From an uncultured Candidatus Saccharibacteria bacterium (lineage in GTDB: Bacteria > Patescibacteriota > Minisyncoccia > Phycocordibacterales > Phycocordibacteraceae), in contig CAYHLC010000002.1 of the NCBI GenBank assembly GCA_964357395.1, positions 107,033 through 167,675 of the forward strand: 60,643 nucleotides of DNA, written 5' to 3'. The translations under genes were made by a program, and so were the position numbers. The notes beneath the pieces were generated by a model, which made no database searches, was not told the DNA's origin, and saw only the letters and a program-made list of their open reading frames with translations. Shown piece after piece: positions 3,196 through 60,526 of this stretch; positions within the stretch are counted from its first letter, which is position 1, and every line of letters begins with the position of its first letter.

Positions 3196-3444
3196 CTAGT
3201 CGTGCTCGTCGCTAGGTGCGCCCTTGTCGATGGCAGCAAGTATCCTACGGGCACGCTCTGGGTCGACTCTTCCGTTTGACCCCCTCTTAAGCACATTGAT
3301 GCTTATGACCAAAAGGACCATAGCCGCAATTGCTGCTGCCGTAATTACCACTGCGTCAGTCTGCGAAAGTGACTCTGGACCCATTGCGGCCAGCTTATAG
3401 GACCTGGGCCAAGCCGTCCAGGAGCCCCTAGGCATGCTTCGCAA
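3196..3444 (-). CDS. small single-pass membrane protein (hypothetical)
   Basis: ORF with one hydrophobic helix VVITAAAIAAMVLLVISINVL and a charged tail. The start may be the internal MGPES. Confidence 0.45.
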   Translation of the reverse strand: MRSMPRGSWTAWPRSYKLAAMGPESLSQTDAVVITAAAIAAMVLLVISINVLKRGSNGRVDPERARRILAAIDKGAPSDEHD

Positions 3445-3725
3445 AAGATATATTGTGCGAAGCTTCTGTATATAGGGCCAACCCTTCCTAAAACCCCTTC
3501 TCCCTACCGTCGGGTCCGTGTGATCTAGCTGGTTACCGCAAATACTCTAATCAAATTATTACTAAGAATGACCGCGTATCACTGCTCCTCTGTCGGGTTT
3601 GCGTCTGGGAGTTAAACTTCGAATTAGTCTGTATCAACTGTGTGTCTTTACCAGCGGCGATACTATTCCCCACTGTTGTCAAGTGGGTAGGATGAGGTAA
3701 ATAAATCCGTGCAAGAATAGCTACT

Positions 3726-3950
3726 ATGCCAGTCGAGCGCGCACTCGGAGTTCTGCTTGTCCTTGGTGGAGGATATGTCACTCTTGCGTACGCACAGCCC
3801 GCAGCCTATCGGATGTGGGCGCATATGGACAACTCTGCCTCAAATGAATACGTGCAGGCCAGCTTCGACGCGTGGGTCGATATAGGAACAGCGCTCATCC
3901 TTATTATCGGCGGCACGCTGATCGAACGCCTAGCCAATAAGCGCGGCTAA
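3726..3950 (+). CDS. small 2-TM membrane protein (hypothetical)
   Basis: 74 aa with two hydrophobic helices. Converges on 3947..4234 with a 4-nt overlap. Confidence 0.5.
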   Translation: MPVERALGVLLVLGGGYVTLAYAQPAAYRMWAHMDNSASNEYVQASFDAWVDIGTALILIIGGTLIERLANKRG

Positions 3951-4234
3951 TCGGAGGCAGGGTGCTTGGGGCGGGTGGCGATGAGGACTATCTCGGCTAT
4001 GGTGGCAATGACATAGACGCGCCAGCCTATGTCGAAGTAGTCGGTGTCGTACTCAGCGTCCCAGCTACCGAGCGCCATAAGCATGGCGAAGGCGGCCGCG
4101 TTCCGCCACAGCAGGCCATGCATCGATGGGATACCGGTGTACGGAAACTGACCACGAGATAGCGTGAGCGCGATGCTGACCACAGGCTTCAGTGTATTCA
4201 AGGTGAGCCCGTTAACTATCTCGCGGTGATGCAT
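3947..4234 (-). CDS. small multi-TM membrane protein (hypothetical)
   Basis: 95 aa with hydrophobic segments. Starts 1 nt after the stop of 4236..4532, last gene of the protease operon. Confidence 0.55.
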   Translation of the reverse strand: MHHREIVNGLTLNTLKPVVSIALTLSRGQFPYTGIPSMHGLLWRNAAAFAMLMALGSWDAEYDTDYFDIGWRVYVIATIAEIVLIATRPKHPASD

Positions 4235-4235
4235 G

Positions 4236-4532
4236 CTACTTTGACTCTTGTGTCTGTATGCATGCTACGTACTCGTCATAGAGCGAAGTGTACTCCGAGC
4301 AGCCCTCCTCGAAGAGCGGGGAGTCGTTGACACACTTGTTCCCGTCCCTACCCCACTCAAACCCGGCGTAGTAAGGCGAGTTAATCGAATACGGATTCTC
4401 TGGCTCTATGCAGCCGACTGTTGCAGGGGACGGTCCAAACTGAAATGGGTTGCCGTGGTCAGTAAAAAAGGTGTTGTACCCAACCCACAAAACAATAATA
4501 ACGAGTACGAAGTATACGAACTTCTCTAACAT
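4236..4532 (-). CDS. membrane-anchored Cys-containing exported protein (hypothetical)
   Basis: N-terminal anchor FVYFVLVIIVLWVGY, four Cys in the soluble part. Lies 4 nt downstream of the protease gene. Confidence 0.6.
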   Translation of the reverse strand: MLEKFVYFVLVIIVLWVGYNTFFTDHGNPFQFGPSPATVGCIEPENPYSINSPYYAGFEWGRDGNKCVNDSPLFEEGCSEYTSLYDEYVACIQTQESK

Positions 4533-4536
4533 GCCT

Positions 4537-5682
4537 TTATTTTACTACAGGCTCAGGCTCTTGCGGGAGCTCATCTGGGGAGTACAGGTCAATGCCGTAC
4601 ATGCCAGCTCGGAACGCGTCGTTGTACATGCGCAGTTTCTGAGCGCGCTTTAGGAGGCCAGCTTTCAAAGTGCGGCGTAGATACTGCGACTGATCGGTAA
4701 CAAAGATTTCTTGCGCGAGCTCGGCTTCGCGACCTGGTGCATGTGCAGTAAGGATAGATCGGATAGCTGCGAGCGCACTGTCGAAGCTAACCGGCAGTGC
4801 CTCGATGGCCTCGTCCTTCGGATGCTCCTCGCGGCCAGCAATGATGTCCTTCAACGCCTCGTTTATCGCTATAAAGGTCTTGCTGTGCTTGGCGAGTGTG
4901 CGTGCCTCATTGCCATGGATAGCTACTGCAAAGCGTGCGTTACCTGGGTCGCGTAGCCCGCCCATGTGAATGCCAACAACCTCACCCTTCTCATTCAGAA
5001 CTGGCGCACCCGAGCTACCCGCTGCAGTGCCAACACCTTGCATCTTAAAGCCGCGGCGCAATACTCCTATGAAGTCCTTGTCTTCGTGGTTCGTATGTTG
5101 CTTATCGTCGATGCCTAGAACCACAACCTCCGCATGGCCAGGTACCTGGCCCATTGCCTGGGTATTGGTGAGTGGGTACGAAATAGTATCTACCTGCTGG
5201 CCCGGCTTGACCTCGTCTGAGTCACCGAACGTGAGCGCCTCTGCGGGTGGCAAGTCGCCGTCTGGAATCGTGACGGTAAAGAGAGCTAGGTCGCGCTCAA
5301 AGTCGATATGGCGGAGCGTCGCCTCAAGCCCTCTGCTGTATACCTTTGATTCAAAGTTGACTGAAACTCGCTTGAAGACGGCCGCAACGTGCGCGTTGGT
5401 CATAATGGTCATCGTCTGCCCCTCGACAGATGTAACAAAGCCAGTGCCAACCTCCTGCACACGCTCGATATCGGCCACCTCCTCATCAGAATTTGGGAAT
5501 ACGGGTTTCATTACATCATTCCAGCCGGTTAGGTATACGACTGAGCGGCCGAGACGCTCCAGGCGCTGCTCGCGTGACTCGGCATGCAGCTCAAACTTGG
5601 GGTACGGAGCGGCATCTCTTTGACCAGCGTCAGCAGTGAGCCGTGTGTGCTCGCGCGCAATAGCTCCGTCTGGAGAAAACAT
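4537..5682 (-). CDS. trypsin-like (S1/chymotrypsin fold) serine protease, no signal peptide
   Basis: Candidate triad context: TNAHV (His), ERDLALF (Asp), GSSGAPVLNEKGEVVGIHMGG (Ser). About 100 aa helical C-terminal extension. Confidence 0.8.
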   Translation of the reverse strand: MFSPDGAIAREHTRLTADAGQRDAAPYPKFELHAESREQRLERLGRSVVYLTGWNDVMKPVFPNSDEEVADIERVQEVGTGFVTSVEGQTMTIMTNAHVAAVFKRVSVNFESKVYSRGLEATLRHIDFERDLALFTVTIPDGDLPPAEALTFGDSDEVKPGQQVDTISYPLTNTQAMGQVPGHAEVVVLGIDDKQHTNHEDKDFIGVLRRGFKMQGVGTAAGSSGAPVLNEKGEVVGIHMGGLRDPGNARFAVAIHGNEARTLAKHSKTFIAINEALKDIIAGREEHPKDEAIEALPVSFDSALAAIRSILTAHAPGREAELAQEIFVTDQSQYLRRTLKAGLLKRAQKLRMYNDAFRAGMYGIDLYSPDELPQEPEPVVK

Positions 5683-5724
5683 ATCTTGACGCTATCACAA
5701 TAGTCCCAAAAGTCAATTAGTGCG

Positions 5725-6057
5725 CTACCAACCGCGCCTAATTGCGTCTGCCTGCTCCTCCTCGTGCGACTTTGCCTGCGCCGAATGGATTTTTTGGTCA
5801 GTTACGTTTGCGTGTGTCGCGAGCGAAATCGCTAACCCCGTCACAAACGTCGCGCCTCCTAGTGCGATCCACAGCGCCCTCTCTGTATCGGCAGACAGCT
5901 CGTCGCTATAGCTATCGATAACGATCCCGCCACCTATGACTGGCGCAGTGAGCGCCAGCAGCGCAACTCGAAGCCAGAATACCCAACGTGCACTATCCGC
6001 TGCCATGCCGTGCCTGCGCTCGGCTGCTTGCCCATGACCATCAGAGTATTCGCTCAT
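5725..6057 (-). CDS. small 2-TM membrane protein (hypothetical)
   Basis: 110 aa with two hydrophobic helices. The -10 TATGCT (6064..6069) lies 6 nt from the ATG. Confidence 0.55.
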   Translation of the reverse strand: MSEYSDGHGQAAERRHGMAADSARWVFWLRVALLALTAPVIGGGIVIDSYSDELSADTERALWIALGGATFVTGLAISLATHANVTDQKIHSAQAKSHEEEQADAIRRGW

Positions 6058-6098
6058 ACATTAAGCATACTGGACAATCTTAAGTTTGGTTACATAGC

Positions 6099-6123
6099 AA
6101 AAACCCCGCTTGCGCGGGGCTTT
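6099..6123 (-). terminator. intrinsic terminator after 6144..6461
   Basis: Minus-strand RNA GCCCCGC-GCAA-GCGGGG followed by UUUUU. Confidence 0.75.
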
Positions 6124-6143
6124 GCGACCGGTACTCCGGTTAG

Positions 6144-6461
6144 CTACATAAGCTTGGCAGCCCTAATTGCGTTACCGCCAATTCGGAACAGCACTCCACC
6201 AAGTGCGGCCTTTGCCCACTGATTAGTAGAGAGTGGATCATTGAAGTGCACCTCTGATAGGTCTACGTCCCATGTCTCAGGGGCTGCTAGCTTGTACTCA
6301 TCACTGCCAGCAGTCATATCATTAAGTGCATCTGCTGCCTCTACTCCGTTAACAACATACTGTCCGATGTTGAATAAGGCGATAAAAGCTGCGGTCCAGA
6401 GCGCCTGGGCACCGAGGAACTTCAGTGCTACATTTCCATTTTCTTTTCCTGCTACACCCAT
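6144..6461 (-). CDS. small membrane protein (hypothetical)
   Basis: 105 aa with N- and C-terminal hydrophobic segments and its own promoter and terminator. Confidence 0.6.
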   Translation of the reverse strand: MGVAGKENGNVALKFLGAQALWTAAFIALFNIGQYVVNGVEAADALNDMTAGSDEYKLAAPETWDVDLSEVHFNDPLSTNQWAKAALGGVLFRIGGNAIRAAKLM

Positions 6462-6490
6462 ATATTTTAATTAGTATTTAATAAAGTACC

Positions 6491-6520
6491 GGTATACCCT
6501 TTGTACCCACTCAGTGTCAA
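6491..6520 (-). promoter_or_regulatory. sigma70-type promoter of 6144..6461
   Basis: Minus strand TTGACA-18-TATACC. Shares the blocks AGTGTCAAAC and GTACCGGTATAC (plus-strand reading) with the promoter at 6996..7024. Confidence 0.6.
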
Positions 6521-6539
6521 ACGAGTTACTGCTACACAC

Positions 6540-6563
6540 AAAACCCCACCGAAGTGGGGTTTT
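6540..6563 (-). terminator. intrinsic terminator after 6580..6957
   Basis: CCCCAC-UUCG-GUGGGG hairpin followed by UUUU on the minus strand. Confidence 0.75.
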
Positions 6564-6579
6564 GTCAAACATCGAGGTC

Positions 6580-6957
6580 TTAGTGGTGACCACCACCTCC
6601 CCCACCGCCTCCTCCCGCTAGGACCTTTCGTGCGCCAAAGGTTAGGGCACCAACAAGGGTCGCCATACCGAGGCTAGTGATATCAAAACCTATAGTGTCG
6701 AAGTCTAGATACGGGTTGCTTAGGCTGTTCCAGAACTCAGATCCATTGAACCCAAAGCCAGTGCTCCACTCTCTTACTGAGAGGTTGTCGAACTGCGAGT
6801 ATACAGCATAGCCGATATTCATCAATATTGCGCCCATAACCGCGTTGATAAGGAGGATGCCAGCTGGTGCTAATTGCTCTGGCACTAGCTTCATTGCACG
6901 CTGCTCTGCTGGCGCAAGAACAAACGATTCTAATAGCTTTGCCGGATTAAAGTCCAT
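6580..6957 (-). CDS. small 2-TM membrane protein with poly-Gly-His C-terminus
   Basis: 125 aa with two hydrophobic helices. Ends AGGGGGGGGGHH. Confidence 0.6.
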   Translation of the reverse strand: MDFNPAKLLESFVLAPAEQRAMKLVPEQLAPAGILLINAVMGAILMNIGYAVYSQFDNLSVREWSTGFGFNGSEFWNSLSNPYLDFDTIGFDITSLGMATLVGALTFGARKVLAGGGGGGGGGHH

Positions 6958-6995
6958 AAGTTCTTTCTTTGACTTATCTTGCTTATAACCGTACC

Positions 6996-7024
6996 GGTAT
7001 ACTCCTCGATACTGTGAGTGTCAA
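6996..7024 (-). promoter_or_regulatory. sigma70-type promoter of 6580..6957
   Basis: Minus strand TTGACA-17-TATACC, with the same extended blocks as 6491..6520. Confidence 0.6.
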
Positions 7025-7078
7025 ACTTATTATGCACCCACACAAGAGGCTACGCTTTCGCAGGATTTTTTATTCGGA

Positions 7079-7435
7079 CTAGTCGTACCAGCCGCGCGTG
7101 TCCGTCTTCCTGCGGGGATAGGCCATTCCCATACCTACGCCGGCTCCAAGGAAGACAAGCACGTCTCGCCAGAAGCGACCTTCAGCGGCACCCTTCGCTG
7201 CAAGAAGGTCCTGTATCGTGCCGTTTGGTGTTGCCTTATCTGCAAATGCGATATTGTAGTCCTTAGTTGCTAATTGCAGATCCGCATGTGCGTCTACAAT
7301 TTCCGGCACCATAAAGACGTACAGTAGGCCGCCGAGCATAGCAAGGGTGAGAGTCTTTCCGAACCACTCCGAACCACTGTCCCGAGGACTAAAAACTTTT
7401 GCTTCTGCCATATACGAAAAATTAGCTTGTAACAC
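7079..7435 (-). CDS. small 2-TM membrane protein (hypothetical)
   Basis: 118 aa ORF. An ATG at 7411 (MAEAKVF) is the more likely start. Two hydrophobic helices. Confidence 0.55.
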   Translation of the reverse strand: MLQANFSYMAEAKVFSPRDSGSEWFGKTLTLAMLGGLLYVFMVPEIVDAHADLQLATKDYNIAFADKATPNGTIQDLLAAKGAAEGRFWRDVLVFLGAGVGMGMAYPRRKTDTRGWYD

Positions 7436-7469
7436 TAGGTATACTTGACTAGTTCAGATTTGGTTACAC

Positions 7470-7496
7470 AAAAACCCCGCTTTCGGCGGGGCTTTT
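7470..7496 (-). terminator. intrinsic terminator after 7509..7832
   Basis: GCCCCGC-CGAAA-GCGGGG followed by UUUUU on the minus strand. Confidence 0.75.
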
Positions 7497-7508
7497 GTTA
7501 ATCAGAGA

Positions 7509-7832
7509 TTAGTACCGACTTACGTACTCCTTATCGTAGGTGGCGTACGGCCTCATCTTAAAAGCAGCCCAGAGCAGACCGCCCGCGCCGAACGCATACA
7601 GAACCTTTCTCAGGTCGTGTCCAGCCTGCTCCGTTCTCAGATTTTCATACTGAACAAGGTCGTTTGCTTCCCGCGCCCTAGCAATATCATCAATCAGGCC
7701 GATTGCCTCGTTGTGCTCGTGCGCCGCTGCCATTCCAGCTTCACACATAGCCAAAGCAAGCGCCGCCATACCGATAACCTTTGCAAAGGCTGTTCCGATG
7801 CTCTCCTCCTGCCACACATGTTTGTAACCCAT
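7509..7832 (-). CDS. small 2-TM membrane protein (hypothetical)
   Basis: 107 aa with two hydrophobic helices. Promoter TTGACA-17-TAAAAA at 7862..7890. Confidence 0.6.
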   Translation of the reverse strand: MGYKHVWQEESIGTAFAKVIGMAALALAMCEAGMAAAHEHNEAIGLIDDIARAREANDLVQYENLRTEQAGHDLRKVLYAFGAGGLLWAAFKMRPYATYDKEYVSRY

Positions 7833-9223: not shown

Positions 9224-9270
9224 CTTCCTATTCTACCGCATCCCGAGGTGAAACCTTGAGATGTTAGGCC

Positions 9271-10095: not shown

Positions 10096-10383
10096 ATGGA
10101 AGGAGGTCCGACGATACGAGATATGATCCGGTGGACTGCTATAGCATTTGCAGGATCCATGGCCCTGTCGTTCATGATGGCCTCAGCAATAACTGGTGGC
10201 TGGTTTATTGGACAGAAAATGGATGCCCTTTTTGAGTACGCCACTGGAACAGAGATTCCAGACGAGACCAGTCTCTTTGGATTTATTATGGCTGCACTTG
10301 CGATCTATGCAACTACGTTCCGGCAGTCTATACAAGACCCAGTCAAGGTGCCCCAAGCCGTAGCAGAGGCAAAAAAACTATAA
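10096..10383 (+). CDS. small 2-TM membrane protein (hypothetical)
   Basis: 95 aa with two hydrophobic helices and a consensus promoter directly upstream. Confidence 0.6.
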   Translation: MEGGPTIRDMIRWTAIAFAGSMALSFMMASAITGGWFIGQKMDALFEYATGTEIPDETSLFGFIMAALAIYATTFRQSIQDPVKVPQAVAEAKKL

Positions 10384-10387
10384 CTAT

Positions 10388-10663
10388 ATGGACAGAGATC
10401 GAATATGGTATCGCCCGGGGATGGGAGAAGTCGCAATGGCAATATTCCAAATGGCCTCTCTGGCCATTGGCGGTAGGATCCTTGGCGTTACGATCGAGAG
10501 CGGAGTCGTACCTCTTGAGTTCGGTAGTGTGGCAGACAACCTTGCCAAGGTAGTTGCTGCCATACTGGGCGCCGGTGCCGCGCTCACCATTGGTAACTTC
10601 TTTCGGCCATTCAATATTGCTAACTCGTACCGGACATTAGTCATCCATAACAGCGATGCCTAA
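10388..10663 (+). CDS. small 2-TM membrane protein (hypothetical)
   Basis: 91 aa with two hydrophobic helices, 4 nt after the previous gene. Confidence 0.55.
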   Translation: MDRDRIWYRPGMGEVAMAIFQMASLAIGGRILGVTIESGVVPLEFGSVADNLAKVVAAILGAGAALTIGNFFRPFNIANSYRTLVIHNSDA

Positions 10664-10832
10664 CTACGAACAGGTGGCGCTCTATGGAGGCGGTGCACTT
10701 TTAGCACTTGCCGTAGTCTTCCTATTGGTCAAGAGATACCGTGCCTCTGTCAAAGCAGAGCGAGAGGAATGGGAGAGGCTGGGCAAGGTGTCTGACGAAA
10801 GGCGCCAACGAGTCAGTGACTTCCTTAGCTAG
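10656..10832 (+). CDS. small single-TM protein (hypothetical, below ORF-track cutoff)
   Basis: Hand-translated 58 aa: MPNYEQVALYGGGALLALAVVFLLVKRY followed by a charged tail. Its ATG overlaps the end of the previous gene by 8 nt. Confidence 0.4.
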   Translation: MPNYEQVALYGGGALLALAVVFLLVKRYRASVKAEREEWERLGKVSDERRQRVSDFLS

Positions 10833-10890
10833 AGTCCCCACTCCCCCTTGAACTAAGGAGGGCAATACGGTATTATAGCCCCACAGAGAT

Positions 10891-11169
10891 ATGGCAACCA
10901 AAAAAGCCGGCGGATCAGCCAAAAACATATCCTACAACAACCCCCAGTACCTGGGAGTTAAGTTGTATGCAGGAGAGAAGGCCAATACAGGCAACGTCAT
11001 CATCCGCCAGCGTGGCACCAAGTTTGTCGCAGGCAAGGGCACTGCGGTTGGTAAGGACGACACCATTTTTGCAATGAAGGCCGGAGTAGTCTCGTACCGC
11101 TCGGTACGCCGCACCAAGTACGATGGCTCCACCGTCCGCCGCCAGGCCGTCGACGTCTTGTCTAAATAG
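10891..11169 (+). CDS. rpmA: 50S ribosomal protein L27
   Basis: KKAGGSAKN, GVKLYAGE and IIRQRGTKF strings. Promoter TTGAAC-17-TATTAT upstream. Confidence 0.95.
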   Translation: MATKKAGGSAKNISYNNPQYLGVKLYAGEKANTGNVIIRQRGTKFVAGKGTAVGKDDTIFAMKAGVVSYRSVRRTKYDGSTVRRQAVDVLSK

Positions 11170-11223
11170 CGCAACCCATAGGCAGTTTGACAAGTACCAT
11201 AAATAGGTACATAGTATGCAGGT

Positions 11224-11505
11224 ATGAAATCTGAACGACTGTTCTTCGAATCTGGCCAATGGGCATACCGGGGCACACTCGTTGGAGCGGCTTACCTTCT
11301 GATTTCTGGGCTCATTGTCGGGGTTTGGGAAGAGAAAGGCTTGGATTGGTTCACTATAGACATTCCTGCTGGTGCTATTGCAGGTAGTGCTTTAGGCGCA
11401 TTGGCTGGCTTTCTGAGCAAGACCTTTCTCAATGGAATGATGCTGGGGTTGGGAGGAGATGTTGGGGGTCCTGATGATCGCGACAACGATTTAGTAAACA
11501 CATAA
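11224..11505 (+). CDS. small 2-TM membrane protein (hypothetical)
   Basis: 93 aa with two hydrophobic helices. TTGACA promoter at 11187. Confidence 0.55.
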   Translation: MKSERLFFESGQWAYRGTLVGAAYLLISGLIVGVWEEKGLDWFTIDIPAGAIAGSALGALAGFLSKTFLNGMMLGLGGDVGGPDDRDNDLVNT

Positions 11506-11512
11506 ATTACAT

Positions 11513-11824
11513 ATGAGTGCAACTGAAGGGCAGGAATCATACGATGATAATGAGACCAAGGAGACTTTCCGAGTCATCATTTCATTCGCTGCATTTGCAG
11601 TAGCCTGTGGGGTACTGTTGTTGGCTACTGGAATGATGCATGATGATGCAGCGGTGACGGGCATTGATACAAGAGAGATGACCTTTGGCGCTTTGCTACT
11701 AATTCCGGCGGGACTCGCTGTGTTGTTTTTTGGAGCATTGAGAGGTAGACCTTGGGCCATTAACACTTTGCGGAAGTATGAGGAACTGCAAGAGTATGAC
11801 AATCGGGATAGGAGCGAAGAATAA
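11513..11824 (+). CDS. small 2-TM membrane protein, paralog of 11839..12159
   Basis: Two helices. C-terminus QEYDNRDRSEE resembles EDYNRDRLDEE of the next gene. Confidence 0.6.
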   Translation: MSATEGQESYDDNETKETFRVIISFAAFAVACGVLLLATGMMHDDAAVTGIDTREMTFGALLLIPAGLAVLFFGALRGRPWAINTLRKYEELQEYDNRDRSEE

Positions 11825-11838
11825 ATGCGTAACTCAAT

Positions 11839-12159
11839 ATGCGAGATTCAATTGAACAGGGAAAAATTAGGCAACGGACGAGGGAGAGACTTATGTGGGA
11901 TGTCGCGTTTTTTGCAACAGCCGTAGGTATACTGGCTGAGGGAGCTGGCCTGGTGAATGTTGATCCATTACGTTTTGATAGTTTTTTGGGTGAAGTAGAG
12001 GGTACTAACACATATCTCGCACTAGGCGGCCTTTTCCTACTGTCAAGCGTATTGGCAGTTATTGCCACTTTTGGGTCTGCTTTCGGGGCAACCAGGCGGC
12101 TGGAAACGAAGCGGATTGAGGATTACAATCGCGATAGATTGGACGAAGAGTTTGGCTAA
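11839..12159 (+). CDS. small 2-TM membrane protein, paralog of 11513..11824
   Basis: Two helices and the shared acidic Y-N/D-R-D-R tail. Confidence 0.6.
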   Translation: MRDSIEQGKIRQRTRERLMWDVAFFATAVGILAEGAGLVNVDPLRFDSFLGEVEGTNTYLALGGLFLLSSVLAVIATFGSAFGATRRLETKRIEDYNRDRLDEEFG

Positions 12160-12171
12160 TCAATCTCCCCC

Positions 12172-12192
12172 ACCGCCCACCGAGGGCGGTTT
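12172..12192 (+). terminator. probable intrinsic terminator
   Basis: ACCGCCC-ACCGA-GGGCGGT followed by a short T run. Confidence 0.5.
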
Positions 12193-12216
12193 ACTGAACG
12201 GCCGCCACGGTTCTGT

Positions 12217-12245
12217 TTGACAATAAGCTTTTGCTGCTGTATAAT
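12217..12245 (+). promoter_or_regulatory. consensus sigma70 promoter
   Basis: TTGACA-17-TATAAT, a perfect consensus, about 40 nt upstream of the ATG at 12288. Confidence 0.75.
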
Positions 12246-12287
12246 AGCCGTAACTAGACATTACTAACTTAAGTACTGTAAGTAGAT

Positions 12288-12623
12288 ATGACACTAACCG
12301 CAACAGCAGAGCAGGCACAGCAGGAAGTCGGCCGCCCAGGATCGTACCTCGCGTGGGCACTTATGTTCGGCGTTGGTTCTGCACTCATCGCTCGCTACTT
12401 CCTACTTTCTGAAGCGCTTGAGTCCGGCTATACAGAAGGCTTTACTGATCCTAGTGGTCGCGTAAGCTACGAGGTCCTCGGACTCACCGTCGCATCCGAG
12501 CGACCAGAGATCATGCGCGAGCTAGTGGACGGCGCCCGCACGACTGGATTCCTAGGCCTCTTTGTAGCTGCGCTCGGAGCAGGTGGAGCGTGGCACCGCT
12601 TCAGCACCGGACCAAAGAACTAA
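12288..12623 (+). CDS. small 2-TM membrane protein (hypothetical)
   Basis: 111 aa with two hydrophobic helices, downstream of the perfect promoter. Confidence 0.6.
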   Translation: MTLTATAEQAQQEVGRPGSYLAWALMFGVGSALIARYFLLSEALESGYTEGFTDPSGRVSYEVLGLTVASERPEIMRELVDGARTTGFLGLFVAALGAGGAWHRFSTGPKN

Positions 12624-12633
12624 CACAACAATC

Positions 12634-12738
12634 CCCTGGTTTAAGGATAAGGAGTTTGGTGAATCACTCTTCTCTCTTGCAGCAGCTGCCTGGGCACTCC
12701 TCGTCTGGCACGTGATCAGCCACGCTCGCAAGGCCTAG
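12634..12738 (+). pseudogene. start-less relic homologous to the 3' end of gene 12880..13107
   Basis: Reads PWFKDKEFGESLFSLAAAAWALLVWHVISHARKA*, compared with VPWFADKEFDDTLFNLAGWLAWGLLAWHVISHARKG* in the intact gene. No start codon in frame. Confidence 0.75.
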
Positions 12739-12827
12739 CTGACAAGAACAGTTACGGTAGCGGTGCTACCAGCAAGAGTTAGACCTACTTCGTGTGGGCC
12801 TTTCTGCTTTATTGGGTGGTGGAGAAA
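12735..12827 (-). pseudogene. relic of the 3' end of rplI (L9)
   Basis: Reads HHPIKQKGPHEVGLTLAGSTATVTVLVS*, compared with DHPIKQKGTHQVPISLDGSTATVVVSV* at the true L9 C-terminus. Includes the identical 17-mer ctgctttattgggtggt. Confidence 0.8.
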
Positions 12828-12844
12828 TGTAACTAGCGCCCAGT

Positions 12845-12873
12845 TTGACAAGTAGTACTTATGAGAGTACAAA
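12845..12873 (+). promoter_or_regulatory. sigma70-type promoter, leaderless configuration
   Basis: TTGACA-17-TACAAA, then 6 nt to the ATG at 12880. Confidence 0.6.
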
Positions 12874-12879
12874 CACATT

Positions 12880-13107
12880 ATGACGGAACAGAAGTTTTGG
12901 GCACCAAACATGAAGCGGGCGGGGCTCGAGTTTGCCATCGGCTCCGTGCTTATAGCTGGAGTCAGATCGGCAGGCAACGGAGCGCTCGAGTCCCTCGTCC
13001 CATGGTTCGCAGACAAGGAGTTTGATGACACACTCTTCAACCTCGCTGGATGGCTGGCTTGGGGACTCCTAGCCTGGCACGTTATCAGTCACGCACGTAA
13101 GGGCTAA
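12880..13107 (+). CDS. small 2-TM membrane protein (hypothetical)
   Basis: 75 aa with two helices. The intact copy of relic 12634..12738. Confidence 0.6.
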   Translation: MTEQKFWAPNMKRAGLEFAIGSVLIAGVRSAGNGALESLVPWFADKEFDDTLFNLAGWLAWGLLAWHVISHARKG

Positions 13108-13116
13108 CAAATTGTT

Positions 13117-13446
13117 ATGAGGCCAGGACACAGAACTGCAGAAGGATACTGGCGGAATGAACCAGCAAGCCCAGTTACTGTCGCAGTCGGTTCTGCGGCT
13201 GTACTCATACCCTTGTATCCAATTGTAGCTTTCACGGCATTTTCCATTGCAAATGGGAGCGGACTTCCTGCCTATAGCGAGGGCGGTACGCTATTCACTC
13301 CAAACGACAGCGTGGAGGTTGCATCCCTAGCCGTACTAATAACTGCGATCTTGCCAGCACTTTTGTGGCTTTCTGTATACCCCGCTGCGCGGCGTTCATA
13401 CAATGAGAGCTACCGGACGCGGCAAGTGGATGACGAAGAAAACTAG
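13117..13446 (+). CDS. small 2-TM membrane protein (hypothetical)
   Basis: 109 aa with two helices. Its stop shares CTAG with the rplI stop. Confidence 0.55.
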   Translation: MRPGHRTAEGYWRNEPASPVTVAVGSAAVLIPLYPIVAFTAFSIANGSGLPAYSEGGTLFTPNDSVEVASLAVLITAILPALLWLSVYPAARRSYNESYRTRQVDDEEN

Positions 13447-22297: not shown

Positions 22298-22325
22298 TTG
22301 ACAAACTGCTATTATTTAGTAATAC
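22298..22325 (+). promoter_or_regulatory. sigma70-type promoter, leaderless configuration
   Basis: TTGACA-16-TAATAC, then 6 nt to the ATG at 22332. Confidence 0.6.
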
Positions 22326-22331
22326 AAGAGT

Positions 22332-22562: not shown

Positions 22563-22567
22563 GAACT

Positions 22568-24694: not shown

Positions 24695-24703
24695 ATACGT
24701 TTG

Positions 24704-24865: not shown

Positions 24866-24881
24866 AGGTACTTTTAATTAC

Positions 24882-47988: not shown

Positions 47989-47989
47989 T

Positions 47990-48322: not shown

Positions 48323-48324
48323 AT

Positions 48325-48657: not shown

Positions 48658-48659
48658 GT

Positions 48660-49052
48660 ATGGGGCAAGAACAACACGACGACAGTGGTCCGTACGCAAT
48701 GCTTGGAATACACTTTGGATCAGCTATTGCTGCAGGCATACTTACCTGGAGCGTACTCGAGCCGCTCTCACATACGCTTGGATTTGATACCTACATAGAC
48801 GACTACGCACGTAGTATGGGGTTTGAGCCAATGACGGAGGAAAAGATTTCTGACCCAGTGGTTACTAGCGAGCGACGAGTTGGGCCGGAGGAAAGATTTA
48901 CTTGGATGAGCGCGCGGGACCAGGCTGGGTACCTTATCTTCCTCGCAACGATGGCGGCATTCCTGATCGCTGGCAGTCTGCTGCGCAAGAAGACCCCTGG
49001 CCCGTACCCAGGACCCACTGTTGCTGACAAGCGAGATCCAGGCCTGAATTAA
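48660..49052 (+). CDS. 2-TM membrane protein, cassette gene 4 of 4
   Basis: 130 aa with the same layout plus a Pro-rich tail, 2-nt gap. Confidence 0.6.
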   Translation: MGQEQHDDSGPYAMLGIHFGSAIAAGILTWSVLEPLSHTLGFDTYIDDYARSMGFEPMTEEKISDPVVTSERRVGPEERFTWMSARDQAGYLIFLATMAAFLIAGSLLRKKTPGPYPGPTVADKRDPGLN

Positions 49053-49060
49053 CCCCCCCT

Positions 49061-49105
49061 CGTGTCATCCCTGAGGGCAAGAAGGAGCAGGGCTGGCTCG
49101 GTTGA
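49061..49105 (+). pseudogene. relic of the 3' end of fmt
   Basis: cgtgtcatccctgagggcaagaaggagcagggctggctcggttga reads VIPEGKKEQGWLG*. The true fmt end (47552..47594) reads VVPEGKKEQDWQG*. 19 consecutive identical nt. Confidence 0.8.
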
Positions 49106-49153
49106 CAATGCCAGTTTTATGGTATAAAATATACAAATAGAAATTACGAAGTT

Positions 49154-49399
49154 TTGTGTATGTTAAATAGAGCTGAAATTGGTCAGAGAGCACTTGGTAC
49201 CCTAATGGTACTTGGCGGGGCACTATGGACAGGCCTCTGGGGCGTTGCTGGTGAGTATGTCGCCTTTGAGCGTTGGGAGCAAATGGATCTAAAGAATTGG
49301 ACTCTGCTCACCGCAGCTGTTCTCTACAAAAGCCGCTGGGGCATTGGTGCAGCAATTGCTGGTATGCATCTAATGAACGCGGGTAAGAATAAAATTTAA
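49154..49399 (+). CDS. small 2-TM membrane protein (hypothetical)
   Basis: 81 aa. Promoter TTGACA-17-TAAAAT starts inside the fmt relic stop region (49102). Confidence 0.55.
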   Translation: MCMLNRAEIGQRALGTLMVLGGALWTGLWGVAGEYVAFERWEQMDLKNWTLLTAAVLYKSRWGIGAAIAGMHLMNAGKNKI

Positions 49400-49401
49400 A
49401 C

Positions 49402-49623
49402 ATGAACTTCAACGATTTAAACGAGGGACAGAGACGAGCATTGATTCCTGTTATAGGGGGTGGTGCATTTTTGGCGCTTGACCTTGTTACGCTAGCTACA
49501 GGCAAGAATATCCTAGGGTTCTCATGGCTCCTAAATGACGAAATGCCGAACGTAGCCGACATAGCGCTTGCTGGCATTGTTATGGCAGTTGGCATATACC
49601 TCTTTTTTAAACGCTCAAACTAA
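49402..49623 (+). CDS. small 2-TM membrane protein (hypothetical)
   Basis: 73 aa with two helices, 2-nt gap. Confidence 0.55.
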   Translation: MNFNDLNEGQRRALIPVIGGGAFLALDLVTLATGKNILGFSWLLNDEMPNVADIALAGIVMAVGIYLFFKRSN

Positions 49624-49630
49624 ATAACTT

Positions 49631-49978
49631 ATGACTGAAAAAGCACCGGAGAAGGAGTCGATCGCGAGTTCAGTTTTCTGGGCTATCCCCCGCTTCCTTT
49701 GGCACATGGCCGAGGTACAGGCCGATGCCAGGATACGTGGCGGCGTAATCGGAGCTACGGTGGGGCTCACCACCATGTTCCCTTTCTGGCTTGCACTCAA
49801 AGCAGCTGGTGTAGAGTTTACCCCTGAGAATACGCTGTTTGATCAGATCAATAGTGACACAGCACTAACGCTCATGTATGACGCAAGCTTCGTGCTCAGC
49901 CTTTTACTTGGATGTGTCGTCGTCAACTGGATGTTTGACAAGGACGCCGAAACTAAGCGAGTAACTAGTGCAGCGTAG
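49631..49978 (+). CDS. small multi-TM membrane protein, N-terminal paralog of 47653..47988
   Basis: 115 aa, MTEKAPEKESIASSVFWA. Confidence 0.6.
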   Translation: MTEKAPEKESIASSVFWAIPRFLWHMAEVQADARIRGGVIGATVGLTTMFPFWLALKAAGVEFTPENTLFDQINSDTALTLMYDASFVLSLLLGCVVVNWMFDKDAETKRVTSAA

Positions 49979-58759: not shown

Positions 58760-59548
58760 ATGATCAACAAGAACTTCGTTCTCCCGCCGAAAGGGGTGTC
58801 GGAGATGGAGACCGAGCGGCGACTCAGCCTCCTACCCAAGGTTCGTGAGGCGCTCGACACAAGCACTGAGGCTATATATGTAGGCGGGTCGCTCGCCGCC
58901 GGTCGCAACCACTCTGTCCACCCCGACTCTGACATAGACACGGGGCTGCTTGTAACGCCACAAACAGTCGGCCACATTGTTGGCACCAACCTTTTCGACA
59001 AGGACCGCGCGGAGTACTTTATTGAGGGGTACAAGAAGGGTCTCGCGCATCAATTTAGTTTGGATGCGGAGATGGACGGAGTGAAGATCGAGTGCCACTT
59101 TATCGACAAGGACGCATATCTCGATGCACTGCGACTACGAAAGGAAACGGTACTGCGTTTCCGCTCCTCAAACGGAGGACAGAACGTGAACTACGGCTTC
59201 AACTTCAATGGAGAGGAGCTCGTCACTGAACTACCTACAGAGACGATCGATAAGTGGTTTACAAGCCCGTTCCCGCTCTACATTAGAGAGGGCAAGAACT
59301 TCTACCCCTGCAGACTAGTAACCAATCTACTGGGCACTCCTATTATTGTTAAGGGCGATGCCTTGCTGCAGCCCTACATTGACTCGTTGTGGACTTGGGT
59401 AGCAGAAGAGCTCTTGGCGTTTGCTGGCGGCGAGCCGGATCTGAGTAACACTAATGTTTCAAAGTCTATGCCCGGTAATTGGAAGTTCGCACCCGAGACG
59501 CTAGCTGCTATTGAAGAGCGCACCAAGACAGAGCTCGCGAGGCTCTAA
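58760..59548 (+). CDS. Pol-beta superfamily nucleotidyltransferase domain protein
   Basis: GGSLAAGRNHSVHPDSDIDTGL = G-S...D-x-D minimal NTase motif. The rest is unrecognised. Confidence 0.7.
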   Translation: MINKNFVLPPKGVSEMETERRLSLLPKVREALDTSTEAIYVGGSLAAGRNHSVHPDSDIDTGLLVTPQTVGHIVGTNLFDKDRAEYFIEGYKKGLAHQFSLDAEMDGVKIECHFIDKDAYLDALRLRKETVLRFRSSNGGQNVNYGFNFNGEELVTELPTETIDKWFTSPFPLYIREGKNFYPCRLVTNLLGTPIIVKGDALLQPYIDSLWTWVAEELLAFAGGEPDLSNTNVSKSMPGNWKFAPETLAAIEERTKTELARL

Positions 59549-59571
59549 TCATAGTTTGGTAAGATAGGGGT

Positions 59572-59820
59572 ATGTCAAAGACACTTCCAGGTGGGACGGT
59601 ACACAAGCTACCGGCTGATATGAAAAAGATGCTGCACTCGAACGCGAAGGTGGAGGCGCTCTGGCAAGACATAACTCCACTAGCGCGCAACGAGTGGATC
59701 TGCTGGATAGAGTCGGGTGCGAGGGCAGAGACTCGCCAGATCCGCCTCGACAAAGGCCTCTCGAAGCTGAAGGGCGGCATGCGCCGCCCCTGCTGCTGGG
59801 TCGGCTGCCCGCACCGTTAA
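59572..59820 (+). CDS. YdeI/OmpD-associated family protein
   Basis: WQDITPLARNEWICWIESGARAETRQIRLDK string typical of the family. Confidence 0.7.
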   Translation: MSKTLPGGTVHKLPADMKKMLHSNAKVEALWQDITPLARNEWICWIESGARAETRQIRLDKGLSKLKGGMRRPCCWVGCPHR

Positions 59821-59844
59821 TCCCCGTTTGCTACACTACAGGTA

Positions 59845-60267
59845 ATGGCCGAACTCAAAACAAAGCGTACCCCCGCAAGCGCCCTCACGTTTATTAAGTC
59901 AGTACCGGATGAAAAGAGGCGCAGGGACAGCCTCGTGCTCCTTAAGGCCTTTAAAGAGATGACCGGGCAAAAGCCGAAGATGTGGGGCACTGCAATTGTC
60001 GGCTTTGGGATGTACCACTACGAGTCTCTGCGGAGCAGTCAAAAGGGCGACTGGCCGCTGGTCGGCTTCTCCCCCCGCAAACAGAACCTCACCCTCTATA
60101 TCATGCCGGGCTTTCTTGGCCTCGGCGCAGAGCTTAAAAGGCTCGGCAAGCACAAGACGAGCAAGGGCTGCCTCTATATCAATAAGCTTGAGGATGTGAG
60201 CATCCCGGTCTTAAAGCAGATCATCAAAAAGTCTTATTCCGCGATGAAGAAGAAGTACAAGGCGTAG
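59845..60267 (+). CDS. DUF1801 (YdhG-like) domain protein
   Basis: MWGTAIVGFGMYHY...WPLVGFSPRKQNLTLYI layout. Confidence 0.75.
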   Translation: MAELKTKRTPASALTFIKSVPDEKRRRDSLVLLKAFKEMTGQKPKMWGTAIVGFGMYHYESLRSSQKGDWPLVGFSPRKQNLTLYIMPGFLGLGAELKRLGKHKTSKGCLYINKLEDVSIPVLKQIIKKSYSAMKKKYKA

Positions 60268-60328
60268 CCTTTAATACCGAAACTGCAATAAAAAAACCGC
60301 CCACTTTTCAGTGGATGGTTTTTTCAAT

Positions 60329-60526
60329 CTAGTTCCCCTGGCTGTTACTTTGGAGCACCATTGCTCCTGCGCCTGCACCGGCTGCCGCCGAAAGGAGAGT
60401 GAGTATCGGATTTCCCTCAGTTAGCGTGAACCCCAAGCCACCTGCGAGAAGCGCCGCTGGTATGATTACGCCCCATGCAAATACTTGCTCAATCAAACCA
60501 CCACCATTTTCAGTTCGCTTTGCCAT
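60329..60526 (-). CDS. small 2-TM membrane protein (hypothetical)
   Basis: 65 aa with two Gly/Ala-rich helices. Confidence 0.5.
   Translation of the reverse strand: MAKRTENGGGLIEQVFAWGVIIPAALLAGGLGFTLTEGNPILTLLSAAAGAGAGAMVLQSNSQGN

Follow-up and report, generated by a model that had tools for sequence, protein, structure and literature searches.

About 40 small genes, interspersed with conserved housekeeping genes in the genome of a groundwater ultra-small Paceibacterota (CPR), are on balance probably genuine and transcriptionally organised genes for mini membrane proteins of 50–130 aa, mostly helical hairpins and some single-pass, that may make up a rapidly diversifying layer of the envelope. 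The window, i.e., the whole analysed stretch of 60,643 nt, contains ~100 genes at a coding density of 88% in our own gene call, and roughly 4 genes in 10 encode tiny membrane proteins without a family; the identities of the core genes were verified via Pfam. The set is an extreme lineage-specific version of the known "dark-matter" small membrane genes.

Number, arrangement and coding signal of the small ORFs

After exclusion of known small proteins (L27, L21, L9, YqeY, MraZ, CsaA-like, TrpR-like, HPF, SET, KGG, OmdA, DUF1801, DUF378, FtsL-like, SLT-like and the glmS remnant) there are 45 unassigned ORFs of 40–130 aa, and 39 of them (87%) contain at least one uncharged hydrophobic stretch of at least 15 aa, which agrees with a sequence-only reading of the same DNA that had counted about 40 such proteins among roughly 105 features. 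Per 10 kb, the window has 7.6 ORFs with at least one helix and 3.3 with at least two, compared to means of 1.12 and 0.21 (maxima 3.3 and 1.67) in 69 other DnaB-centred loci of 10–21 kb each, 16 of them from CPR; the density here is ~7–15 times that of the comparison loci. The small-ORF blocks occupy at least 12 separate junctions of conserved, syntenic housekeeping genes. All five arrays described in the sequence-only reading were recovered at its coordinates, and an independent public gene caller finds the same ORFs where contigs overlap; the singletons that the sequence-only reading had placed beside dnaB, recR, rplU, rplI and holB stood, and the one at murA did not, with no credible small ORF adjoining this gene (the gap 44113–44317 was checked).

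The first array consists of two parts. In 3196–4532 there are four ORFs, 3196–3444(−), 3726–3950(+), 3947–4234(−) and 4236–4532(−), the last with an N-terminal anchor and a Cys-rich tail of 75 aa; three have codon scores of 0.25–0.32 bits per codon and 3196–3444 a weak 0.07, none has a Pfam match, and public contig L094 carries the same calls (3196–3444 with a later start, 62 aa). In 5725–7832, on the minus strand and flanked by a trypsin-like protease gene and an SLT-like gene, the ORFs 5725–6057, 6144–6461, 6580–6957 (terminating in G9HH), 7079–7435 and 7509–7832 score 0.17–0.29, and a promoter/terminator module is repeated at 6058–6123 and 7432–7495. The second array (10096–13446, plus strand) lies on both sides of rpmA (10891–11169) and comprises 10096–10383, 10388–10663, 10656–10832 (doubtful), 11224–11505, 11513–11824, 11839–12159, 12288–12623, 12583–12738, 12880–13107 and 13117–13446 (doubtful), with promoter matches at 10061–10088, 11187–11215 and 12217–12245 (a perfect TTGACA-17-TATAAT) and SNPs that are mostly synonymous and in the third position. 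Between rmuC and yqeY, the third array (22010–22825, plus strand) is composed of 22010–22297, 22332–22562 and 22568–22825, with scores of 0.20–0.29 and a 13-bp-stem terminator at 22834–22863. The fourth (24485–25097, minus strand) has three single-helix ORFs, 24485–24694, 24704–24865 and 24882–25097, without family matches and with scores of 0.22–0.42, all encoding proteins with an acidic N-terminus and a basic C-tail with a final Y. The fifth (47653–49978, plus strand) has seven ORFs in two series, beginning at 47653, 47990, 48325 and 48660 and at 49154, 49402 and 49631, with a spacing of 1–8 nt within each series and scores of 0.13–0.28; this array is near-identical in the strain runs X3–X6.

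Two-helix singletons are found between rplI and the S41 peptidase gene (13917–14213, plus strand; codon score 0.23), beside holB (41289–41537, minus strand; 0.33, above 99.5% of shadow ORFs) and at 60329–60526 (minus strand; 55 aa in the public call), and the small hydrophobic ORF 57533–57724 (plus strand; 0.27) encodes a protein whose hydrophobic segment precedes an RNRGR tail. At dnaB, recR and rplU (17909–19869) there are 17909–18193(−), 18852–19100(+), 19119–19274(−) (doubtful) and 19660–19869(+). Promoter matches of 11/12 at 18838–18866 and 19644–19671 end 7–10 nt upstream of in-frame ATGs, which suggests leaderless mRNAs for 18852–19100 and 19660–19869; the starts of these two ORFs are probably ATG 18873 and ATG 19681, respectively.

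A codon model trained on 37 large genes only, with 190 shadow ORFs as the reference, scores most small ORFs above 95–99% of the shadow ORFs. Among strain SNPs in small ORFs, 18 of 26 fall in the third position (p = 2e-4; 16 synonymous and 10 non-synonymous), which is similar to core genes (17 of 24), and with a further 4 of 6 in 22568–22825 the combined count is 22 of 32. The AT content of the 20 nt upstream of the starts is 0.64, compared to 0.46 for all ATGs (p = 6.5e-15), core genes behaving likewise; the ORFs are spaced 1–10 nt apart in an operon-like manner, and consensus promoters lie immediately upstream. None of the RNA runs contained this locus. Given the coding signal, the third-position excess, the promoters and the operon-like packing, most of the small ORFs are very probably genuine genes, and the SNP pattern shows purifying selection on their sequences across short time spans. 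That the ORFs are mostly spurious and lie in non-coding spacers is already largely refuted and we consider it extremely improbable: three of them (6471–6605, 13117–13446 and 10656–10832) do fail tests, but the codon scores, third-position SNPs, AT-rich starts, promoters and independent gene calls argue otherwise, and removal of the ORFs would drop the coding density far under the norm for reduced genomes. Codon scores and third-position SNPs thus supply the coding signal whose lack the sequence-only reading had named as an argument against itself. Six or seven small ORFs in all have a weak coding signal, among them 13117–13446 (codon score −3 bits), 10656–10832 (missing from the public gene caller's set), 3196–3444, 17909–18193, 19119–19274 and 37685–37807. 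The candidate 6471–6605, with only 3 of 11 SNPs in the third position, was ruled out as a coding ORF.

Membrane character and predicted topology

By a strict count, 19 ORFs have two helices and 20 have one, so the assertion that two helices are far more frequent than one is not borne out; several one-helix ORFs have a weaker second helix interrupted by a single charge. Among control shadow (out-of-frame) ORFs 13.7% have at least one helix and none of the 190 has two, and among 90-aa chunks from large proteins the corresponding values are 27% and 3%. Topology was assessed by a hydropathy heuristic and charge counts. K+R versus D+E totals 39/99 for the loops, 50/56 for the N-tails and 59/42 for the C-tails, and the interhelix loop is 10–55 aa long and strongly acidic. 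Because K and R favour the two tails and the loop is acidic, the two-helix proteins probably have both termini in the cytoplasm and the loop outside, and membrane hairpins with an outward-facing loop are a reasonably likely architecture. Sortase/exosortase sorting signals combine a cleavable N-terminal signal peptide with a conserved motif (LPXTG, PEP, GG or similar) directly ahead of a C-terminal helix and basic tail. Here the N-terminal regions (10–35 aa) are charged and unlike signal peptides; a C-terminal helix and basic tail are present, and no common motif before the helix was seen when the sequences were read by eye. AlphaFold2 run on a single sequence without an alignment returned one long continuous helix (pLDDT ~70) and no hairpin.

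The Gly/Ala-rich helices may favour helix–helix packing, either mutual or with larger envelope proteins. Glycine-zipper two-TM domains are represented in Pfam by Rick_17kDa_Anti and the Gly-zipper families. The small proteins resemble them as Gly-rich helical hairpins with GxxxG, but they have no Pfam match at E ≤ 0.01 and GxxxG is enriched only ~1.8-fold.

The ORFs could also be young, largely dispensable "TM-first" proto-genes from expanded intergenic DNA of lower GC, i.e., hydrophobic ORFs that are transcribed off nearby promoters and weakly selected. Consistent with this, their GC3 is lower than that of core genes (0.54 vs 0.66, p = 1.4e-11) and their codon scores are weaker, they have no relatives, non-synonymous SNPs are somewhat commoner (10 of 26 vs 6 of 24 in core genes), and several ORFs are borderline. 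However, the third-position and synonymous excess amounts to purifying selection, none of the 190 shadow ORFs from this genome yields a two-segment protein, the consistent charge asymmetry together with the basic C-tails speaks for a selected topology, and the packing resembles translationally coupled operons. We regard such an origin as very unlikely.

Homologue searches, relatives and duplication scars

In scans of 61 small ORFs against Pfam-A and NCBIfam the matches were limited to known housekeeping ORFs, DUF378 and the glmS/SIS remnant, the best for the hydrophobic ORFs being chance-level SecE/EpsH at E of about 3e-3; none of the 61 matched PADLOC at E ≤ 0.01, and no toxin partners were found for the small ORFs. 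The 42 unassigned ORFs, scanned against PHROG as two concatenates (concatenation may cost sensitivity), gave no match; a separate PHROG scan gave seven, probably from assigned proteins, phrog_1460 (tRNA amidotransferase) evidently being YqeY. The proteins of 7509–7832, 12880–13107 and 48660–49052 matched only themselves among 1.8–5.8 billion protein clusters (1.84e9 representatives for the first). These searches bear out the description of the proteins as unrecognisable.

Syntenic relatives keep the core gene order, with core proteins 55–91% identical, and yielded no tblastn or phmmer match to the small ORFs; their gaps are either empty or occupied by two-helix ORFs unrelated to those here. 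Where the window has an L27–L9 gap of 2.27 kb, L084 has 516 bp and the relatives L002, L087 and L001 have 51–125 bp, and the rmuC–yqeY gap is 935 bp here vs 290 bp in L002. The same junctions span 50–300 bp in L002, L087 and L001 and carry no such ORFs, and the L002 gaps that match the 17909–19869 singletons contain no hydrophobic ORF, the dnaB–recR gap there being only ~90 bp. The position of 5725–7832 is taken in L085 by four ORFs of two helices each, which match in order and size range and include one with a poly-Gly-His tail. A two-helix counterpart of 13917–14213, 92 aa long and alike in relative orientation, lies at the rplI/S41 junction of L084 (Smith-Waterman z 8.1, BLASTP E only 0.15). 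Because some of the small ORFs keep their position, order, size and architecture in the nearest relative, extreme sequence divergence contributes alongside gain and loss, and the L084/L085 counterparts may mean that part of the turnover is extreme divergence of conserved genes.

The strain comparison used low-coverage assembled contigs (2–8x), and the absence of the block 12285–13437 was judged from four runs plus a single divergent contig end. No contig of runs X3–X6 covers the block 12285–13437 (plus strand; 12288–12623, 12583–12738, the rplI remnant, 12880–13107 and 13117–13446), both flanks of which are covered, and a variant contig departs at 12284 into unrelated sequence absent from the window; we infer that at least this one promoter-led block was replaced or exchanged between ~97%-identical strains. 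The gap sizes, the strain-level replacement and the scars described below uphold the claim of fast turnover, and strict conservation with synteny, which would have meant no turnover, is not what the short or otherwise filled junctions of relatives display. The small membrane genes are very likely lineage-specific and fast-evolving.

The counterparts in L084 and L085, matching in size and architecture, are also compatible with conserved accessory subunits, present in all relatives and too short and divergent to recognise, such as partners of the divisome, Sec/YidC, pili or transporters. The ORF 28177–28539, apparently FtsL-like by its expected position in dcw, points the same way, and Méheust et al. 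2019 (PMC6744442) caution that small fast-evolving proteins evade family clustering. Such subunits are nevertheless quite unlikely to account for the set, considering the short junctions without such ORFs in L002, L087 and L001, the density relative to other CPR loci, the strain-level replacement of one block, and the recent expansion shown by within-array paralogy.

Two of the three paralogous pairs proposed earlier were confirmed, 11513/11839 (Smith-Waterman z about 9, rank 2 of 990 pairs) and 47653/49631 (BLASTP E 1.7e-4), and 24704/24882 was not significant (z 1.1). In addition, 47653/48325 gives z about 7 and 24485/24882 z 5–6 (Smith-Waterman), and the strongest pair is 12583/12880 (E 8e-16). 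The longest small-ORF repeat (109 nt, 75%) is that of the paralogue pair 12632/12998, and there are no near-identical repeat pairs of at least 100 nt in the window.

A copy of the final 28 rplI codons is found at 12741–12824 (minus strand; tblastn 68% identity, E 9e-9), the functional rplI 3′ end being 13443–13529; at the DNA level 12798–12824 and 13503–13529 are 93% identical. Because the remnant is flanked by the paralogues 12583–12738 and 12880–13107, it points to segmental (tandem) duplication. A copy of the fmt 3′ end (original 47553–47597) at 49064–49108 (plus strand; 45 nt, 82% identity; tblastn 16 codons, E 3e-5) brackets, together with the original, the four-ORF block 47653–49052, and its end provides the −35 box of an 11/12 promoter match (49102–49130) ahead of 49154. 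A glmS C-terminal remnant (19880–20125; NCBIfam glmS and Pfam SIS matches) adjoins an IS200/RAYT-like ORF (20237–20911), which a 26-nt inverted repeat (20200–20225/20881–20906) bounds and which has a paralogue at 53032–53691; L002 has an intact 606-aa GlmS in the same place. The paralogues and the rplI and fmt remnants show that the arrays grew via local segmental duplication followed by rapid divergence, plus block insertion at core-gene 3′ ends.

Integrative elements that target tRNA genes or gene ends duplicate the gene 3′ end when an islet integrates. The direct repeats of gene 3′ ends that bracket blocks at fmt and rplI are alike, and the arrays might be degraded remains of mobile elements or phage-like islands once integrated at core-gene 3′ ends, in which case the ORFs would be element genes (e.g., superinfection exclusion, holin-like or entry-blocking) and not the cell's own repertoire. 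The repeats would then correspond to att-site duplications, and the GC3 deficit of 12 points relative to core genes, the two IS200/RAYT-like genes and disrupted glmS inside the window, and the strain-level exchange of one block all fit. However, the arrays and their immediate surroundings lack any integrase, recombinase, replication or structural gene, the unassigned ORFs have no PHROG matches, the blocks are tiny (0.7–1.5 kb) and scattered across at least 12 junctions with no single island, tandem duplication fits the rplI scar better as paralogues flank the remnant, and counterparts occur in the same order in the nearest relative; we consider this origin unlikely. An integron cassette requires an IntI integrase and attC, a 60–140 bp imperfect palindrome after each cassette. 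Profile searches and reading of the large ORFs found no integrase in the window, a repeat search found no recurring palindrome between ORFs, and spacers of 1–10 nt leave no room for attC. Diversity-generating retroelements, which are common in CPR, need a reverse transcriptase and a template/variable repeat pair; the window has no RT-like ORF and, as stated above, no near-identical repeat pair of at least 100 nt.

Possible role and comparison with known gene sets

As the likeliest role we tentatively suggest a rapidly diversifying envelope layer of mini membrane proteins. Phages, hosts or competitors would put diversifying or frequency-dependent pressure on its exposed loops, and the outcome would be a variable surface repertoire rather than a conserved machine. 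The sequence-only reading had raised host-interface or immunity-type functions as a hypothesis; with neither PADLOC nor PHROG matches nor toxin partners, the analysis found no link of the proteins to a host, a phage or a toxin, and such functions are conjectural. As for the earlier phrase "surface or membrane repertoire", membrane character and fast turnover were substantiated, and surface exposure is a putative feature suggested by the charge-bias topology. A dedicated cassette-like surface-variation system or, in a related reading, a natural hotspot of "transmembrane-first" new-gene origination seems to us an unlikely extension: promoter-led slots at housekeeping-gene ends would be refilled by duplication, insertion or inter-strain exchange with mini-proteins that are ORFan hairpins, and their acidic loops, facing outward, would form a fast-changing coat. 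If true, this would be an antigenic-variation-like or receptor-masking layer of an ultra-small episymbiont against phages, hosts and competitors.

The arrays consist of 3–10 ORFan genes, absent from relatives and with hydrophobic helices in 87% of their products, which places them among "dark matter islands" as operationally defined by Makarova et al. 2014 (PMC4158269). The archaeal islands contain narrowly distributed, fast-evolving genes, and the two have in common clustered, small, lineage-specific, membrane-enriched genes with traces of mobile elements, and involvement in conflict or communication between microbes is proposed for both. They differ in that about 28–39% of proteins have a transmembrane segment there compared to 39 of 45 here, in that the archaea have few large islands whereas this CPR bacterium has micro-arrays at more than 12 housekeeping junctions, and in that no defence or mobilome genes are found within the arrays here. 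Among CPR-enriched families, 76 of 106 have at least one transmembrane helix, and many Parcubacteria-specific enriched families are hypothetical membrane proteins (Méheust et al. 2019, PMC6744442); those families are common to many CPR genomes, whereas the proteins described here have no detectable relatives and their ORFs are missing from the same junctions in other Paceibacterota. DUF378 (PF04070) is matched by no other ORF in the window, but its 60–70-aa two-helix hairpin is similar to the small proteins, and 2510–2725 is a true member (E 1e-14, Pfam).

Abundance of small hydrophobic ORFs among core genes

The best-supported reading of the 45 small ORFs in the window is that they encode lineage-specific, rapidly diversifying mini membrane proteins, arranged as small promoter-led units where housekeeping genes adjoin. 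These are the ORFs of 40-130 aa that are left once family-assigned small proteins are set aside; any uncharged hydrophobic stretch of at least 15 residues was counted as a hydrophobic helix. At least one such stretch is present in 39 of the 45 and two are present in 19, compared with 13.7% and 0% of 190 size-matched shadow ORFs (out-of-frame control ORFs of the same genome) and with 27% and 3% of 90-residue segments cut from the large proteins of the window. One crude gene caller, applied alike to the window and to 69 other DnaB-centred loci (16 from CPR), returned 7.6 ORFs with at least one helix and 3.3 with at least two per 10 kb in the window, against means of 1.12 and 0.21 and maxima of 3.3 and 1.67 in the other loci. 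The dense occurrence of small membrane-type ORFs among core genes, to which the sequence-only reading had drawn attention, is thus borne out, as are the positions it gave for the arrays (array 1 at 3196..7832, array 2 at 10096..13446, array 3 at 22010..22825, array 4 at 24485..25097 and array 5 at 47653..49978). Some of its details do not hold: two-helix proteins, described as far the more frequent, do not clearly outnumber those with one helix, and no credible ORF was found beside murA, where a singleton had been placed.

The window has a G+C content of 54% and a coding density of 88%, and contains one tRNA and about 100 genes. A typical reduced core is confirmed by Pfam (GltX, M23 peptidase, trypsin-like protease, LOG-family protein, RNase T-like exonuclease, S41 peptidase, CorA, DnaB, RecR, L27, L9, L21, YqeY, MraZ, HPF and others), which also assigns 2510-2725 to DUF378; 28177-28539 is FtsL-like, judged by position. 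The remaining large ORFs, identified by reading their translations, we take to be the dcw/mre cluster, LysS, ProS, GreA, RseP, Frr, HolB, MurA, PriA, Def and Fmt. The genomes nearest by DnaB search are Candidatus Paceibacterota MAGs (74% identity for the relative's locus L002 and 63% for L001), and contigs 99.95% identical to the window come from the 0.1-um fraction of Hainich aquifer well H41; the source is therefore a groundwater CPR/Patescibacteria bacterium. The tRNA was the sole match in an Rfam search of the window, so none of the small ORFs conceals a known RNA.

Coding signal and predicted architecture

Most of the small ORFs are genes, a conclusion on which five independent lines of evidence agree. 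First, in a codon model trained on 37 large genes only, with shadow ORFs as the null, most small ORFs score above 95-99% of shadow ORFs. Second, comparison with second-study contigs of a co-occurring strain, ~97% identical in the region, places 18 of the 26 SNPs inside small ORFs at third codon positions (binomial p = 2e-4; 16 synonymous, 10 non-synonymous), and the neighbouring core genes give 17 of 24; in 22568-22825 the count is 4 of 6. Third, real starts follow AT-rich sequence: small ORFs have an A+T fraction of 0.64 in the 20 nt upstream of the start and core genes one of 0.56, against 0.46 for all ATGs (p = 6.5e-15). Fourth, ORFs in same-strand runs are spaced 1-10 nt apart, and the best sigma-70-like matches directly precede small-ORF runs or singletons. 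The predicted promoters include a perfect TTGACA-17-TATAAT at 12217-12245, sigma-70-like matches at 10061-10088, 11187-11215 and 49102-49130, and two (18838-18866 and 19644-19671) that end 7-10 nt ahead of in-frame ATGs; this layout suggests that leaderless or very short-leader mRNAs are frequent (for example at 18838-18875 and 19644-19683). A promoter/terminator module occurs twice, at 6058-6123 and 7432-7495. Fifth, the public contigs' own gene caller yields identical small-ORF calls. Shine-Dalgarno motifs are absent genome-wide, from core genes and small ORFs alike, so that a test of the small ORFs by this signal is uninformative. A search for RNA sequencing runs containing the locus found none.

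Beside these five lines stand six small ORFs that score weakly in the codon model, and 6471-6605, which is non-coding and has just 3 of 11 strain SNPs at third positions; that the small ORFs as a whole are spurious we regard as scarcely credible. We also rejected the notion that they are pieces of one decayed large membrane gene: no ORF gave a partial Pfam match, and the reading is further contradicted by the ATG, AT-rich leader and basic tail that each ORF has of its own and by SNPs that fit each frame. At 23327-23639, next to tRNA-Glu, lie two convergent ORFs (42 and 44 aa) of uncertain coding status, separated by a hairpin with a 12-bp stem (23462-23489); the peptides they would encode are very acidic and Pro-rich, with PDWW/PDWD motifs, and are not hydrophobic.

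The typical two-helix protein begins with an N-terminal region of 10-35 aa, continues with two Gly/Ala-rich helices joined by a loop of 10-55 aa, and closes with a short basic tail such as KRSN, RRIMAGNRN or RKKTPG. Summed over the 19 two-helix proteins, the ratio of K+R to D+E is 50/56 in N-tails, 39/99 in loops and 59/42 in C-tails, which, by the established positive-inside rule, suggests that both termini lie inside the cell and the acidic loop outside. Gly makes up 13.8% of the hydrophobic segments of small ORFs versus 8.9% of the window's other hydrophobic segments, and GxxxG is 1.8 times commoner in the former, an enrichment that hints at helix packing. Array 4 differs in that its proteins are single-pass; their N-termini are acidic, and their tails are basic and amphipathic with a final Tyr. 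AlphaFold2, run on 7509-7832 with no alignment, was uninformative, returning one long helix at a confidence too low for a fold search (pLDDT 69.5, pTM 0.32).

The description of these proteins as unrecognisable was confirmed. The hydrophobic small ORFs had no match in Pfam, NCBIfam, PHROGs or PADLOC, and deep homologue searches with three proteins, one from each of three arrays, returned essentially the query alone: 12880-13107 and 48660-49052 matched only themselves among 5.8e9 proteins, and an exhaustive phmmer search of 1.84e9 cluster representatives with 7509-7832 gave itself and one marginal repetitive match (E 6e-4).

Origin and turnover of the arrays

In an all-against-all comparison of the 990 small-ORF pairs, the four best were 12583/12880, 11513/11839, 47653/49631 and 47653/48325, each made up of members of one array, which points to local duplication; the second and third of these had been proposed as paralogues from the sequence alone. 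Duplicated 3' ends of core genes lie within two of the arrays. A remnant of rplI (its last 28 codons, E 9e-9) is found at 12741-12824, 0.7 kb away from the gene's true 3' end and flanked by the paralogues 12583-12738 and 12880-13107, and the layout is that left by a tandem segmental duplication in which the gene end was included; a further 0.34-kb gain (13117-13446) would have followed. A 45-nt copy of the fmt 3' end (82%) at 49064-49108 lies exactly 3' of the four-ORF block 47653-49052, divergence is far greater in the ORFs beyond it than in the remnant, and the remnant's sequence now supplies the -35 box of the next predicted promoter. This looks like a block insertion at the fmt gene end. 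An apparent backward joint of 1506 in the strain contig proved to be an artefact, the contig's fmt end having been aligned to the remnant copy.

GC3 is 0.54 in small ORFs versus 0.66 in core genes (p = 1.4e-11), a difference that young or imported DNA, or weak codon selection, could account for. Two alternatives touch on this composition. One, which we consider unlikely, takes the small ORFs as decayed cargo of mobile elements. RAYT-like genes do occur in the window, and the genome is evidently prone to remnant and insertion events: glmS is cut down to its last 81 codons beside the IS200/RAYT-like gene 20237-20911 (19880-20911), whose bounds are marked by a 26-nt inverted repeat (20200-20225 and 20881-20906). 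The tRNA-Glu gene was rejected as an integration site, no partial tRNA duplicate being found nearby. The other alternative, proto-genes under weak selection, seems to us very unlikely; the third-position share of SNPs in the small ORFs (18 of 26) stands beside the lower GC3. At the glmS position L002 has an intact 606-aa GlmS, and since only a remnant is left here, glucosamine-6-phosphate synthesis may have been lost from this genome. The gene 20237-20911 has a RAYT-like paralogue at 53032-53691 (E 4e-31), alongside which a 24-nt palindrome, CTGAGTGAGATCCGATCTCACTCA, occurs three times (53015, 53523 and 53705), so that 53015-53728 looks like a REP/RAYT-type arrangement.

The fast turnover suggested by the sequence-only reading is supported. 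At strain level, 12285-13437 had no coverage in four second-study runs in which both flanks were covered; a variant contig departs from the window 3 bases before the ATG of 12288, immediately past the shared promoter, and continues into sequence absent from the window. Arrays 3, 4 and 5, unlike this block, are near-identical in the second-study runs. Among relatives, the core order protease, SLT-like gene, LOG, exonuclease, L27, L9, S41, CorA, DnaB, RecR, L21, GlmS, RmuC, YqeY is common to the window, to the loci L002, L087 and L001, and to the closer L084/L085 (77% identity for the exonuclease, 91% for L27), with core-protein identities of 35-91%, mostly 55-91%. The junctions differ: the L27-L9 gap is 2.27 kb with eight ORFs in the window, 51-125 bp in L002, L087 and L001, and 516 bp in L084; the protease-SLT gap is 2.2 kb versus ~100 bp in L002, and the RmuC-YqeY gap 935 bp versus 290 bp in L002. 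The small hydrophobic ORFs found no homologue in the relatives' loci by tblastn (E < 0.01) or among all 808 ORFs there by phmmer (E < 1).

Part of the apparent turnover may be extreme divergence. L084 and L085 carry two-helix ORFs of their own at matching places: four of similar size follow the SLT-like gene in L085 (3024-5060), and L084 1436-1714 has the same place and orientation as window 13917-14213. The counterpart pairs (L085; L084 with 13917-14213) reach Smith-Waterman z of 6.4 and 8.1 against composition shuffles, but composition-adjusted BLASTP E values of 0.63 and 0.15, in the same order, are not significant. Such positional matches are what the proposal of conserved subunits diverged past recognition has in its favour; for the set as a whole, with its differing gaps and its strain-variable block, that proposal strikes us as quite unlikely. 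Together the matching places and differing gaps indicate that some small genes were probably retained yet diverged beyond recognition and that others were gained. The ORF 6580-6957 ends (6580-6620) in G9HH and its L085 counterpart (4330-4423) in G6HDAHGHDDHAHGH; this poly-Gly/His tail, conserved in otherwise unalignable proteins, could reflect metal binding or length variation. Between exonuclease and rpmA, L002 (5919-6323) and L087 (9074-9475) have a gene for a protein of 133-134 aa with a single anchor and a C-terminal domain that contains Cys, and the window has the unrelated two-helix ORFs 10096-10832.

A possible envelope role and further elements of the window

The mini membrane protein set would thus have grown by duplication and end-insertion and would partly have been swapped between strains. 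CPR/Patescibacteria, which account for much of bacterial diversity, depend on other cells or live attached to them; to our knowledge, their envelope biology is almost wholly unknown. The loops, acidic and predicted to face outward, the pace of change and the CPR lifestyle are most economically explained by a role in a variable envelope or surface layer, which we infer tentatively. No partner, toxin or defence gene that would back such a role was found. Small, narrowly distributed membrane proteins are enriched in archaeal 'dark matter islands', where 28-39% of proteins have transmembrane segments (PMC4158269), and membrane proteins dominate CPR-enriched families (PMC6744442). The window differs from these cases in degree (87% hydrophobic, ~40% of all genes), in the dispersal of the genes as micro-arrays over more than a dozen core-gene junctions, in their absence from sister genomes and in that a growth mechanism is visible.

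That ~40% of the window's genes, in a reduced genome, should be family-less mini membrane proteins, selected, expanding and apparently exchanged between strains, is an investment that points to the envelope as the interface at which CPR-type organisms evolve fastest. It is also a warning that this gene fraction systematically escapes annotation and family-clustering pipelines. The coordinates, promoters, scars and variable block supply a concrete gene set usable for population genomics, metaproteomics and topology assays, and even if the function were trivial, the window would offer a clean natural example of new small membrane genes arising via duplication at gene ends.

Several further elements were recorded. 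Two MreB paralogues (34658-35713 and 41577-42839), 46% identical, are present despite the reduced genome, the second with an N-terminal extension of ~85 aa under the longest-ORF call. A 35-nt repeat, AGCTAGGGTGTAGCCACTAGGGTATAGGGTTTAGA, occurs downstream of corA and upstream of dnaB (16401-16435) and at the frr/holB junction (40565-40599), with 86-96% identity. The TrpR-like (YerC/YecD-type) gene 38167-38604 is flanked by two 31-nt boxes with the palindrome TCATATATGATCA (38101-38131 and 38612-38642), candidate operators for its autoregulation; the 359 bp upstream of it (37808-38166), with neither a credible ORF nor an Rfam match, could be an unannotated RNA or regulatory region. Perfect hairpins, AACAGCCCGAGGTCCGACCTCGGGCTGTT, 97% alike, follow mraZ/lysS (29980-30008) and the HPF gene (50007-50035), with a weaker third copy at 9237-9265, and are probably bidirectional terminators.
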